Virus record (IMG/VR): IMGVR_UViG_3300011989_000011 | Coordinates: 1 to 64,000 of that record | DNA: 64,000 nucleotides | Strand: one strand, 5' to 3' | DNA from: a virus | Lineage: Duplodnaviria; Caudoviricetes | Part shown: positions 12,033-43,987 of the stretch, in pieces | Position numbering within the stretch: position 1 is the stretch's first letter | Layout of the letters: each line of letters begins with the position of its first letter | Notes under the pieces: model-generated | Databases searched by the model: none | Seen by the model: only the letters and a program-made list of their open reading frames with translations | What the model was told of the DNA's origin: nothing | Translations under genes and position numbers: made by a program

Positions 12033-12056
12033 CTCTAAATGTTAGTTACTGTTAGC

Positions 12057-12180
12057 AAAAAGTTAGCCAAAGTTAAATATCTGTGTATCAGCAAATTAAA
12101 TGCTATTTTGTTTGGTACTTTCGAAAAAAATGACTACCTTTGCAATGTAATTAAGAAACAAATAAAACATTAGAGCAATG
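12057..12180 (+). promoter_or_regulatory. Repeated promoter-leader cassette 1
   Basis: aaagttagccaaagttaaa..atcagcaaattaa..tttg..aaaaaatgactacctttgcaaTGTAATTAAGAAAC..agagcaATG. Confidence 0.85.
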
Positions 12181-19509: not shown

Positions 19510-19613
19510 ACTTTTGATTATCAGCAAATTAAATGCGATTTTGTTTGTTTATCTCAGAAAAAATGACTACCTTTACACTGTAATTAAGAAACATATAAAC
19601 ATTAAGAGCAATG
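19493..19613 (+). promoter_or_regulatory. Repeated promoter-leader cassette 2
   Basis: Same blocks as cassette 1; TGTAATTAAGAAAC at 19579-19592. Confidence 0.85.
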
Positions 19614-21710: not shown

Positions 21711-21815
21711 TTAATTGGAAATCAAGAAATTAACGAGGTAAATATTTGGTCAATCCGTAAAAAATGACTACCTTTACAATGTAATTAAGAAACATATTAA
21801 ACTTTAAGAGCAATG
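21703..21815 (+). promoter_or_regulatory. Repeated promoter-leader cassette 3
   Basis: TGTAATTAAGAAAC at 21780-21793; ttaagagcaATG. Confidence 0.85.
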
Positions 21816-24400: not shown

Positions 24401-24472
24401 ATTAAGAAATGGAATCGTAGAAGAATTACCGCCGTGAGGCGTTCATTGCTCAGAGGAGCAGTTTCTTAATTA
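24401..24472 (+). ncRNA. Candidate structured RNA antisense to the cassette leaders
   Basis: ATTAAGAAA/TTTCTTAAT base stem, CGCC-GTGA-GGCG and TGCTC-AGAG-GAGCA hairpins; contains TTCATTGCTC..GTTTCTTAATTA. Confidence 0.4.
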
Positions 24473-24575
24473 GTTTGTGGGAAAAACATTCTGAGACGAA
24501 AAATATTTGTTAAAAGTGTTTGAGTTTCAAATGTTTTTCCCTATTTTTGTGGGCAGAAATTAGTGCGCACAATAT

Positions 24576-30223: not shown

Positions 30224-30344
30224 AAGTTAGTCAAAGTTAAATAATTGGTTATCAGCAAATTAACGCTCGTAAAATTTGCATATCTCAGAAAAAATGACTA
30301 CCTTTACATTGTAATTAAGAAACATATAAAATACGAGAACAATG
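30223..30344 (+). promoter_or_regulatory. Repeated promoter-leader cassette 4
   Basis: TGTAATTAAGAAAC at 30310-30323. Confidence 0.85.
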
Positions 30345-30524: not shown

Positions 30525-30568
30525 CTTTGTAATGTAATTAAGAAACAAACAAAGATTTAAGAGCAATG
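30522..30568 (+). promoter_or_regulatory. Truncated cassette 5 (-7 box and leader only)
   Basis: TAACTTTG taa TGTAATTAAGAAAC (30533-30546) ..ttaagagcaATG. Confidence 0.7.
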
Positions 30569-32134: not shown

Positions 32135-32240
32135 ATTTCTGATTATCAGCAAAATAATGCGGAAAATGTTTGGTCAATCCGTAAAAAATGACTACCTTTA
32201 CAATGTAATTAAGAAACACATATAAACATTAAGAGCAATG
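32107..32240 (+). promoter_or_regulatory. Repeated promoter-leader cassette 6
   Basis: TGTAATTAAGAAAC at 32204-32217. Confidence 0.85.
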
Positions 32241-41521: not shown

Positions 41522-43036
41522 ATGTCGAGCGTAGCAGTAAAGAACAAAATGCGTGAATGGCGTAATGATTGGAATCTGTTTATCAAGGAGGTCCTAAAGG
41601 CTGACCTTGACAAGGAGCAGAAAGCTATTGTTGATGCCGTTCAGCATAATAAGATGGTAGCAGTAGCTTCGGGAACCGCACGGGGAAAAGACTTCGTAGC
41701 GGCTTGCTGTGCTATGTGCTTTCTCTATCTCACTCCTACATTCGACAAGGAAGGTAATTTGGTAGGCAATACCAAGGTTGCCATGACAGCCCCAACAGAT
41801 CGACAGGTGGGTAACATCATGGTGCCGGAGATTCGAAGACTTTTCAAGCACGCAAAGGTACTGCCCGGCCGTTTCGTTGCTCATGACATAAGAACTGATT
41901 ACGAAGAATGGTTCTTGACGGGTTTCAAGGCAGGTGATGATAACACTGAGGCATGGTCGGGTTTCCATGCAGTGAACACCATGTTCGTAGTAACGGAGGC
42001 ATCGGGTATCAGTGAGACGGTGTACAATGCTATCGAAGGTAACTTGCAAGGTAACTCACGAATATTGTTAGTATTCAACCCTAACATCAATATGGGTTAC
42101 GCTGCAAGGGCAATGACACAAGCACGTTTCAAGCATTTCAGACTTAACTCCCTCGATGCGGAGAATGTCGTGGAGAAGCGTATCGTGCACCCCGGCCAAG
42201 TAGACTATGACTGGGTGAAAGATAAGGTTGAGAACTGGTGTGAGCCTATCCAACAATCAGACTTCGATGAAGGGTTGGGAGATTTTACTTGGGAGGGTAA
42301 GACCTATCGCCCTAATGATCTGTTTCGTGTCAAGGTGTTGGGATTGTTCCCGAAGGTCAGCGAAGACGTACTCATCCCCTACGAATGGATCGAGCGTGCC
42401 AACCTACGATGGAAGCAAAAGGTCGAAAGCGGTTACAAGCCAAGGACACAAGCACTCGTTGGTATGGATGTGGCAGGTATGGGTAGAGATTCATCAGTTC
42501 TCTGTCCACGCTATCGTAACTTTGTTTCCAAGTTCGATGTTCATCAGTCGGGAGGTAAGGCAGACCACATGCACGTAGCCGGAATGGGTGCCAACTATCT
42601 CCGTGCTCACAAGAAGACGTTGTTGTTCATTGATACCATAGGCGAGGGTGCAGGTGTCTACTCACGATTGGAAGAGTTAGGATTCGATGAAAGAATATAC
42701 TCAGCCAAGAATAGTGAGAGTGCTAAGGGTCTTCACGATGTCACGGGAGAATACACCTTTGCTAACATGAGGGCTTATCTGATGTGGTGTGTTAGGGATT
42801 GGCTCAACCCTAAGAACGGCTTCAACGCTTGCCTCCCACCATGCGATCAGTTTGCAGAGGAAGCCACATCTACCAAGTGGAAGTTCCTCAGTAGTGGTAG
42901 TATCATCATAGAGCCAAAGGAAGATATTAAGGCAAAGATAGGTCGCTCGCCGGACTATATGGATGCGTTGGCTTACACGTTCTATCCTAACTACAATAAT
43001 TTGGATGCGAAAGCCATTTTGAATAAAGTGTTATAG
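41522..43036 (+). CDS. terL: Terminase large subunit
   Basis: SGTARGKD Walker A, VVTEASG Walker B-like, GMDVAGMGRD and RSPDYMDA nuclease motifs. Confidence 0.92.
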   Translation: MSSVAVKNKMREWRNDWNLFIKEVLKADLDKEQKAIVDAVQHNKMVAVASGTARGKDFVAACCAMCFLYLTPTFDKEGNLVGNTKVAMTAPTDRQVGNIMVPEIRRLFKHAKVLPGRFVAHDIRTDYEEWFLTGFKAGDDNTEAWSGFHAVNTMFVVTEASGISETVYNAIEGNLQGNSRILLVFNPNINMGYAARAMTQARFKHFRLNSLDAENVVEKRIVHPGQVDYDWVKDKVENWCEPIQQSDFDEGLGDFTWEGKTYRPNDLFRVKVLGLFPKVSEDVLIPYEWIERANLRWKQKVESGYKPRTQALVGMDVAGMGRDSSVLCPRYRNFVSKFDVHQSGGKADHMHVAGMGANYLRAHKKTLLFIDTIGEGAGVYSRLEELGFDERIYSAKNSESAKGLHDVTGEYTFANMRAYLMWCVRDWLNPKNGFNACLPPCDQFAEEATSTKWKFLSSGSIIIEPKEDIKAKIGRSPDYMDALAYTFYPNYNNLDAKAILNKVL

Positions 43037-43100
43037 TTAATTAGGTTAAGAAAGTTAGTAAAACGTTTGTAATTTGAAAGATTTTGATTATCTTTGCAAC

Positions 43101-43238
43101 GTTTCTTAATTACAAGGCCGATGGCACTCATTGCTCGCCAAGGCTGAGTAATTCTCTTTGTGCGTTCGCCCGTGACGGGTAGACGCACATTTTGTTTATG
43201 GGTAAAATAAAAGCCCAACCGATTGGTTGAGCCTTTTC
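43101..43238 (+). ncRNA. Candidate trans-acting antisense small RNA
   Basis: Own -7 box TATCTTTG at 43089-43096, no ORF, two hairpins and a terminator; 5' end and loop 1 are complementary to early-gene leaders. Confidence 0.6.
43209..43237. terminator. Bidirectional intrinsic terminator
   Basis: AAAAGCCCAACC GATT GGTTGAGCCTTTT between convergent units. Confidence 0.8.
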
Positions 43239-43715
43239 TTATTGTAGTGCTTCTGATTTCCTTTGTTCGTAGAGAACCTTTGCAGAATACTTGCCTACGT
43301 TCTCGAAGCTATCGTAATACTCCCCATTCTTCTTGAATAGTATGTTGAAGAAATGCTCCTTATTGTTTGGGAAGGTAAACTCCACTACGGTAGCATTGCA
43401 GTTGGCATCATCGGTGCCGAACCCCTCCACCAACACATCAAAGGCATTGACGGAGTTGATCGCATCAGTTATCTTTCTCAGTGAAGTGCTTGCCCACGCT
43501 ATGACATTCTGACTATTGGTGTCAAGCATCGGGTTATACGCTTTGATGTTCTTTGTCTTCACGATGGTGATGGTCGGGACCTTGCTTCCTCTGTCTATCT
43601 GCTGCTGAAAATACACATGGTTAAGATACTCCACAACCTTTGCGTTATCATTGCCACACGAGGCGAATAACAACACCACAAGCGAATAAAAAGCGAAAGC
43701 CAATAACTTCTTCAT
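43239..43715 (-). CDS. Lipoprotein moron with its own promoter
   Basis: Signal peptide with lipobox LFASC; TATATTTG -7 box on the minus strand just upstream. Confidence 0.8.
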   Translation of the reverse strand: MKKLLAFAFYSLVVLLFASCGNDNAKVVEYLNHVYFQQQIDRGSKVPTITIVKTKNIKAYNPMLDTNSQNVIAWASTSLRKITDAINSVNAFDVLVEGFGTDDANCNATVVEFTFPNNKEHFFNILFKKNGEYYDSFENVGKYSAKVLYEQRKSEALQ

Positions 43716-43800
43716 AGGAATAATTTTAGCGCAAATATAAGCAATTCTACGGCTCCTAAAGATTTCTATTCGTTAAACAATATTAAAAGTGAAATTAGGT

Positions 43801-43832
43801 GTTTGTTACTCAAACATTTTTAAGTAAATTTG
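43801..43832 (+). promoter_or_regulatory. Late (head) promoter with GTTTG-N5-CAAAC palindrome
   Basis: GTTTG TTACT CAAAC at 43801-43815; TAAATTTG at 43825-43832. Confidence 0.65.
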
Positions 43833-43987
43833 CGCAAGAAAGCGTGTGAAGATGCACGCAACAGAACTAATCGTAAACTTCATTGCTCTTAACATGAGAA
43901 GTGGTTCTACTCGATGATGGTCTGCTTGCGTCATGTACGCTCGCAGACCATTTTATTTATTGTTTTATTAATCTAAAGCTAAGAGTA

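Follow-up and report, generated by a model that had tools for sequence, protein, structure and literature searches.

A non-coding unit located directly past the large terminase gene (terL) of a Bacteroidota phage can be read, with moderate confidence, as the gene of a trans-acting antisense small RNA of about 95 nt, which would be transcribed from its own promoter and pair with the phage's tagged mRNAs. Since its two exposed stretches are antisense to the common 5' end of these mRNAs and to their start-codon tag, the RNA probably damps the translation of phage DNA-metabolism genes by base pairing. New in this analysis are the observations that the unit belongs to a conserved family adjacent to terL, that the fold of this family is biased toward the plus strand, and that the complementary stretches (seeds) change jointly with their targets.

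Anatomy of the terL-adjacent unit and its predicted targets

The window, which denotes the whole 64-kb stretch of DNA analyzed here, is the first part of a 76,251-bp IMG/VR virus record with a completeness of 98%. The record terminates in a tyrosine integrase gene, indicating that the phage is temperate. Promoters in the window are of the Bacteroidota type (TTTG / TAnnTTTG), the motif defined for sigma-ABfr (PMC7366714), and the hosts of related phages are Bacteroidales, Prevotella, Parabacteroides, Paludibacteraceae, and other Bacteroidota. The putative RNA gene (hereafter unit 1) lies between terL and a convergent ORF of 158 aa (43239-43715, minus strand), beyond which the head module follows with a phrog_5824 gene at 43988 and the major head protein at 45241. 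The features of the locus are as follows.

41522-43036: terL, large terminase subunit (phrog_2; E value, 3.5e-31)
43066-43096, plus strand: promoter of unit 1, read from the sequence, with -33 TTTG (43066-69), a 19-nt spacer, and the -7 box TATCTTTG (43089-96)
43101-43114, plus strand: seed 1, GUUUCUUAAUUACA, the exact reverse complement of the 14 nt that open six leaders
43108-43153, plus strand: hairpin 1 in three tiers (43108-13/43148-53, 43116-19/43142-45, and 43122-25/43137-40), predicted by RNAfold
43126-43136, plus strand: apical loop of hairpin 1, ACUCAUUGCUC, predicted by RNAfold
43129-43136, plus strand: seed 2, CAUUGCUC, antisense to the GAGCAAUG start tag
43159-43198, plus strand: hairpin 2 (stem 43159-89, GUGA in the loop region) followed by UUUUGUUU, a probable intrinsic terminator
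43209-43237, either strand: hairpin 3, which folds on both strands, is terminator-like on the plus strand, and is absent from L002/G011

A sigma-70 promoter scan is unsuitable for Bacteroidota promoters. Direct reading revealed the consensus promoter of this phylum, TTTG-N19-TATCTTTG, which agrees with the -7 box that an earlier note on this DNA had assigned to the unit at 43089-96, and its position predicts an RNA start near 43100-43102. No terminator was found between the terL stop (43036) and unit 1. A 100-nt RNA of the unit folds with a z-score of -4.1; positions 43101-07 are predicted to be single-stranded, and 43108-13 form the base of hairpin 1.

The 3' end had previously been placed at 43209-37, giving an RNA of about 138 nt, and both assignments are revised here. 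The near-identical relative L002 matches the window at 98.7% identity as far as 43189, and the two sequences are unrelated from there on; in L002, hairpin 2 is followed by AACUUUUU, and hairpin 3 is missing. Because the identity stops at 43189, hairpin 2 with UUUUGUUU is the likely terminator, and the predicted RNA most likely ends there with a length of about 95 nt. Hairpin 2 with its U tract corresponds to the intrinsic terminator of an intergenic sRNA of Bacteroides, and its stem co-varies across the family. Hairpin 3 abuts the convergent ORF; it is probably the terminator of that inserted gene and may also serve as a back-stop for read-through past hairpin 2.

The unit had also been described as free of ORFs, which holds in one respect and fails in another: a 32-aa ORF on the plus strand and a 75-aa ORF on the minus strand overlap it, but no frame is open in all relatives. 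Across the relatives compared, no conserved reading frame was found on either strand, the frames being broken on both, as expected of a non-coding, trans-encoded sRNA. A structured non-coding unit running from its own predicted promoter to a terminator is conserved among the relatives.

Seed 1 is directed at a 14-mer, TGTAATTAAGAAAC, that occurs exactly six times on the plus strand, at the leaders listed here.

12146-12180, plus strand: target leader 1 (14-mer, 13 nt, then GAGCAATG)
19579-19613, plus strand: target leader 2
21780-21815, plus strand: target leader 3
30310-30344, plus strand: target leader 4, whose start tag is the variant GAACAATG
30533-30568, plus strand: target leader 5
32204-32240, plus strand: target leader 6

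Each of these copies (12146, 19579, 21780, 30310, 30533, and 32204) lies 3-4 nt past a TAccTTT[G/A] -7 box and 12-15 nt ahead of an ATG. The reverse complement of the 14-mer is present once, at 43101-14, 4 nt past TATCTTTG, which confirms that the first 14 nt of the predicted RNA are exactly antisense to all six cassette start sites. When up to two mismatches were allowed, the 14-mer had 8 matches against 0.69 expected, and none of 100 shuffles attained 8. Cofolding of seed 1 with each leader gave a net energy of -12 to -13 kcal/mol, making this the strong interaction of unit 1 in the window. The predicted targets are 11-31 kb distant and belong to at least six transcription units. A scan of IMG/VR for the exact 14-mer returned only single, scattered chance matches and was uninformative.

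The six cassette promoters (e.g., 12050-12145) share about 100 bp upstream of the leader with repeated AAAGTTA(g/a) motifs. Their -7 box is mostly the non-consensus TACCTTTA, with the weaker TTTA, whereas that of unit 1 is consensus, which suggests that the cassette promoters, unlike the unit 1 promoter, depend on an activator.

The second seed resides in the loop of hairpin 1, which carries CATTGCTC, the antisense of the start tag GAGCAATG. The tag has 17 copies in the window compared with 3.3 expected; of the 14 on the plus strand, 12 are ORF starts, and two further starts use GAACAATG or GAGTAATG. The earlier claim that the loop is complementary to a start motif on 12 genes was accordingly borne out, with ACUCAUUGCUC in the apical loop and 12 tagged ORF starts on the plus strand. 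In the window, the pairing of seed 2 of unit 1 extends over just 8-9 nt. The tagged genes have independent starts in the 0-33 kb arm and include a Sak4-like annealing protein, a helicase, RadC, DUF2958, and several unknowns. No packaging, head, or tail gene carries the tag, except that the phrog_5824 gene at 43988, the first gene of the head module, has the GAGTAATG variant. The order of the two seeds is crossed with respect to the leader, and both could bind a single molecule only in a pseudoknot-like manner.

The integrase gene of the record (74805-76043, minus strand; L255:14805-16043), with Arm-DNA-bind_5 and Phage_int_SAM_5 domains, also starts with GAGCAATG. A lysogeny gene thus bears the same tag as the tagged DNA-metabolism genes.

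A conserved family of predicted RNAs and their co-varying seeds

The relatives consisted of 80 IMG/VR phages whose TerL is 68-73% identical to that of the window. A promoter-to-terminator unit was present directly past the terL stop in 71 of them, and all 71 units have a TAnnTTTG box. Downstream of the box, the unit continues with a short hairpin and an unpaired (U)UUUCAUUGCUCUU, and then come a GUGA-loop terminator hairpin and its U run. Among 22 aligned family variants, the core UUCAUUGCUC is identical in 21 and has U for the second C in the remaining one, and the flanking stems vary around it. When the family structure, which was written by hand, was evaluated, 87.7% of cells were paired compared with 37-51% in controls with partners slid; 13 of 20 pairs had changes on both sides, and the covariation score was 0.40 against 0.07-0.14 in the controls. 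MAFFT with RNAalifold did not recover the family's hairpin 1 and, owing to unequal loop lengths, was unsuccessful for the four type III sequences; single-sequence folds were used instead.

Of 26 variants, 25 were more stable as plus-strand than as minus-strand RNA, with a mean difference of -9.7 kcal/mol, since many of the pairs are G-U. This bias argues for selection on a plus-strand transcript rather than on a DNA palindrome. The only variant whose minus strand folds better is L069 (4514-4589), in which the inner terminator hairpin is replaced by its exact reverse complement, so that the stem is kept and the G-U pairs are lost. Nearly all hairpins preceding the U run are capped by a GUGA (GNRA-type) tetraloop (UUGUGAAA, CCGUGAGG, and CCGUGACGG; 43170-43177 in the window), and the same loop is present in a small hairpin at 24434-24437, within an element described below. 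The recurrence of this loop could reflect stability or a shared protein contact.

A covariance model of the type I/II form (R1: 5' hairpin, single-stranded seed, and terminator) detected one copy in each of nine whole genomes at 51-88 bits, and no match was obtained in five genomes without the terL-adjacent unit. In the window, where the seed is presented in a loop, R1 had no match at E values up to 5. The kinship of the window unit with the family therefore rests on its position directly past terL, a promoter 4-5 nt before the first element, the CAUUGCUC core, and the GUGA-loop terminator, and the unit is the rarer type III form, with its seed in a hairpin loop. Other type III sequences (L264, which equals L299; L298; and L326) have the same three-tier hairpin built from different stem sequences with compensatory changes. 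Type II units (L051, G008, and G009) bridge the forms, as they combine a type I body with the 5' GUUUCUUA extension seen in the window. When the window-type unit was searched for with a strict regular expression, only 5 of the 80 relatives were recovered, and direct reading downstream of terL was required. Pattern scans of metagenomes and genomes yielded the new type III variant L326, the window-type copy L327, and L328 on the Prevotella RUG753 contig of L264; the remaining three matches were due to chance. Genomes G001-G005 keep the GAGCAATG start tags and lack the terL-adjacent unit.

Rfam (cmscan) returned only tRNA and noise, both for the whole window at the gathering threshold and for 42900-43400 at E values up to 10. 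BlastN analysis of the locus gave no match among GenBank phages, and a literature search found no published description of such RNAs in Bacteroidota phages.

The earlier note had named the co-conservation of seeds and leaders in relatives as a check, and co-variation in trans was found for both seeds, with cognate matches exceeding non-cognate ones. For seed 1, the longest perfect complement to the own leaders was 15 nt in G000, 14 nt in L262, and 12 nt in both G008 and G009, whereas seed 1 of G000 reached at most 11 nt against the leaders of unrelated clades. The RNA of L299 opens with GTTTCTTATTTACA and its leader is TGTAAATAAGAAAC, a difference of one position from the window pair on both sides; the base changed in this seed also swaps its partner in hairpin 1, from A9-U52 to U9-A. 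For seed 2, perfect complements to gene starts measured 23 nt in G013, 22 nt in G012, 20 nt in G006, G007, and G015, 17 nt in G010, and 15 nt in G008, compared with a background of about 10 nt. The flanks of seed 2 follow the start-site consensus of the clade: ...CUCUUAUGU faces ACAUAAGAGCAAUG, ...CUCUUGCC faces GGCAAGAGC, and ...CUCUAUG faces AUAGAGCAAUG. Such long, clade-specific complements spanning the AUG are hard to explain except by RNA-RNA pairing or by repeated copying of gene starts, and repeated recombinational copying of gene starts into the RNA region would also give rise to co-variation.

The anti-start seed is a universal feature of the family, and the 5' seed occurs in some clades only; seed 1 is absent from G006, G010, G012, and G013. 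In the G007/G015 clade, an exact 13-nt complement of the leader is situated in the promoter spacer, overlapping the -7 box. Because this complement precedes the predicted RNA start, a role of the 14-mer as a DNA operator or within the terL 3'UTR is possible.

The gene starts with the longest complements (20-23 nt) are those of ORFs of 47-59 aa (G007:369, G012:693, G013:39745, and G015:15444). The encoded proteins are partly orthologous between clades, and no match to the small best-target proteins of other clades was found in Pfam or PHROGs. These small proteins may be the primary targets.

Additional weak matches of the two RNA models described here were observed in G009 (L232:10961-11043) and G012 (L227:10043-10157). 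The second unit of G009, located 1.5 kb past the first, consists of a CCCUG/CAGGG hairpin, ACAUUGCUCUUUAA, and a terminator, and some genomes may carry further paralogues.

Companion elements and alternative readings

The earlier note had proposed that one sRNA serves the whole regulon. This has to be amended, as two further elements of the window contain the anti-start core.

43825-43958, plus strand: unit 2, with the -7 box TAAATTTG, hairpin A, a long hairpin B presenting UUCAUUGCUCUUAAC, and a terminator
24430-24474, plus strand: third anti-leader element, with a CGCC-GUGA-GGCG hairpin, UUCAUUGCUC, 9 nt, and then GUUUCUUAAUUAGU

Unit 2 has its core CATTGCTC at 43881-88, shares the CAUUGCUC core with unit 1, and is always found directly upstream of the phrog_5824 head-module gene. 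A second covariance model (R2) detected it at 79-132 bits in 13 of 16 genomes, including the five without unit 1 (G001-G005); it is a well-conserved structured RNA. With a complementarity of 13-16 nt to eight gene starts in the window, its anti-start seed is longer than that of unit 1. No minus-strand ORF is maintained in unit 2, as shown by a 2-nt indel between G010 and G013. All 16 genomes examined have at least one RNA with the anti-start core.

Masking of its own downstream gene start was considered as a general function of unit 2 and rejected, since a tag-like start is found there only in G000 and G011. A resemblance of UGCUCUUAACA in unit 2 to the boxA of E. coli was also set aside, because it leaves the conserved CAU and the long complements unexplained.

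The third element contains both motifs in colinear antisense order and is thus antisense to an entire leader. It is promoterless and forms part of the 3' region of an operon; a strong hairpin of 12 bp or more and a U run (to 24545) come next, and the portal gene (24576) starts about 100 nt past the element.

Among the alternatives to an antisense RNA gene, a hybrid reading accepts the RNA and its anti-start seed and takes the 14-mer TGTAATTAAGAAAC as a DNA operator, by which a phage protein would co-regulate the cassette and RNA promoters. We consider it unlikely, although several observations fit it: the motif occupies +1 to +14 of all seven promoters (seven full copies, counted from predicted start sites), the leader complement of G007/G015 is outside the predicted RNA, and co-variation of the sites would equally be expected of a protein and its operators. 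On the other hand, the 14-mer is asymmetric, with TAATTA as its only palindromic part, and its 3' half belongs to the co-varying RNA stem. The 13-nt complement of L262 begins about 10 nt inside the predicted RNA rather than at its first base, TAAGAAAC also stands ahead of internal genes that have no promoter, and there is no promoter in the vicinity of the third copy, at 24461-74. A candidate binding protein was not found.

It is also conceivable, with a rather low probability, that the active species is the 3'UTR of the terL mRNA or an RNA processed from it, which would tie late transcription to the silencing of the tagged genes. The stretch from the terL stop to unit 1 is free of terminators, L258 has no visible consensus promoter, the leader complement of the G007 clade could be transcribed only from upstream, and the element at 24430-74 is itself a promoterless 3'UTR element. 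Nevertheless, all 71 viral units have a TAnnTTTG box whose distance from the first structural element is constant, which would be difficult to account for if the box were unused. The primary-transcript and 3'UTR routes are mutually compatible.

The composition of units 1 and 2, both of which comprise a promoter, hairpins, and a terminator, together with the invariable location of unit 2 directly upstream of a head-module gene, brings to mind a leader or attenuator module for antitermination (a promoter with an early terminator, like lambda pR'-tR' and 6S RNA), in which CAUUGCUC would be an element binding a protein or the polymerase. We regard this as very improbable: the cassettes past unit 1 have their own promoters in relatives, a convergent gene occupies this place in the window, and neither the perfect AUG-spanning complements of 17-23 nt nor the clade-specific co-variation would be explained. 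Finally, it is scarcely credible that the unit is a non-functional remnant of a cassette leader that was inverted or rearranged, or that it encodes a small protein on the minus strand, where GAGCAATG (43136) opens a frame of 46 codons, given that the motif order is unlike that of an inverted leader, that the frame stops after 4 codons in L051 and is broken in type III relatives, and that the unit is kept over about 30% TerL divergence with compensatory stem changes and a plus-strand bias.

Proposed mechanism and comparison with known systems

On the preferred reading as a trans-acting antisense RNA, host RNA polymerase would transcribe unit 1 from the consensus sigma-ABfr promoter past terL and stop at hairpin 2, and read-through transcripts of terL would bear the same sequence as their 3'UTR. 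The pairing partners would be promoter-proximal cassette transcripts together with those of further genes in the DNA-metabolism arm. The free 5' toehold GUUUCUU may initiate a 14-bp duplex with the first 14 nt of the leader, opening the base of hairpin 1, and the apical loop CAUUGCUC may form a kissing contact with the GAGCAAUG start-codon tag. In a host without Shine-Dalgarno sites, a duplex over the AUG would be expected to block initiation, and longer duplexes are perhaps cleaved by a double-strand RNase. The presumed outcome is a joint damping of this gene class, either by filtering out leaky lytic transcripts below a threshold in the lysogen or by imposing a threshold in lytic growth; alternatively, a joint shut-down could occur once late-region RNA accumulates. 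The task may be split with the RNA of unit 2 (43825-43958), which bears the longer anti-start seed.

The closest counterpart in function is c4, an antisense RNA of phages P1 and P7, which are heteroimmune; it pairs through two distinct complementary segments. PMC8198154, citing Citron and Schuster (1990), describes c4 RNA (immI) and the CI RNA of P4 as phage small RNAs that silence the lytic-side genes of their own phage by pairing near translation starts, and it reports that seeds and targets co-vary between related phages. Unit 1 resembles them in having two complementary stretches directed at gene starts of the phage's own genes and in its seed-target co-variation. In contrast, c4 RNA is cut from the operon that it controls and has one target region, whereas unit 1 has its own predicted promoter, lies beside terL, and faces a dozen or more dispersed tagged targets, 11-31 kb off. 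Processing from a repressed operon, which characterizes C4 RNAs, is thus not a feature of unit 1, and the C4 family of Rfam had no sequence or structure match to the window, where only tRNA was found; unit 1 is not a member of this family. To our knowledge, the host phylum lacks Shine-Dalgarno sites and Hfq, unlike the hosts of c4.

Among bacterial RNAs, GibS of B. thetaiotaomicron has a sigma-ABfr promoter, an intrinsic terminator, and an unstructured 5' seed with a second region (R1 and R2), and it represses target mRNAs by pairing across their start codons (PMC7366714). Unit 1 shares with GibS the phylum, the type of its predicted promoter, the terminator, the 5' seed with a second region, and the start-codon pairing, which is predicted here. 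GibS is chromosomal, responds to metabolism, and has few host targets, whereas unit 1 is phage-borne and aimed at a stereotyped tag of the phage itself. No sequence similarity was found between the two.

RegA of T4 is a protein repressor that recognizes loosely defined AU-rich sites at the starts of many early mRNAs and brings about their joint translational shut-down. Both systems direct one phage product to many start regions, but the reader in the case of unit 1 would be an RNA acting by Watson-Crick pairing. The OOP RNA of lambda and the sar RNA of P22 are short promoter-to-terminator RNAs that act in lysis-lysogeny control as cis-antisense transcripts opposite a single target; unit 1 is instead encoded away from its many targets.

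Most of the regulatory RNAs known to be encoded by phages come from a small number of enterobacterial phages, with one target each. More than 70 gut and rumen Bacteroidota phages keep a predicted RNA whose seed is antisense to a stereotyped start-codon tag on a dozen or more of their own genes. If confirmed, this would represent regulon-wide riboregulation of a phage developmental program in a phylum whose translation initiation and sRNA biology are poorly understood, and it would provide a reason for the standardized leaders of these phages. It would also offer a marker of immunity groups that can be read from sequence and a compact programmable switch for Bacteroides genetics.

More tentatively, the standard leader and tag may constitute an RNA address code of Bacteroidota phages, served by a small set of reader RNAs and co-evolving clade by clade, which could set lytic timing and superinfection immunity groups. 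The candidate readers in the window are the RNA beside terL, the RNA upstream of the head genes, and the anti-leader element in a 3'UTR. If such a code exists, superinfection immunity would be RNA-based, as in the heteroimmunity of P1 and P7 but regulon-wide, and the tag-reader pair would set lytic timing as well.

The gap between the two RNA genes (43190-43825) is a site of swapped inserts. It is filled in the window by the convergent 158-aa lipoprotein-like ORF with its own hairpin; in L002 (4669 onward) and G011, the relative that is 98.7% identical to the window up to 43189, it is filled by about 2.3 kb of different sequence that opens with another cassette-type promoter.
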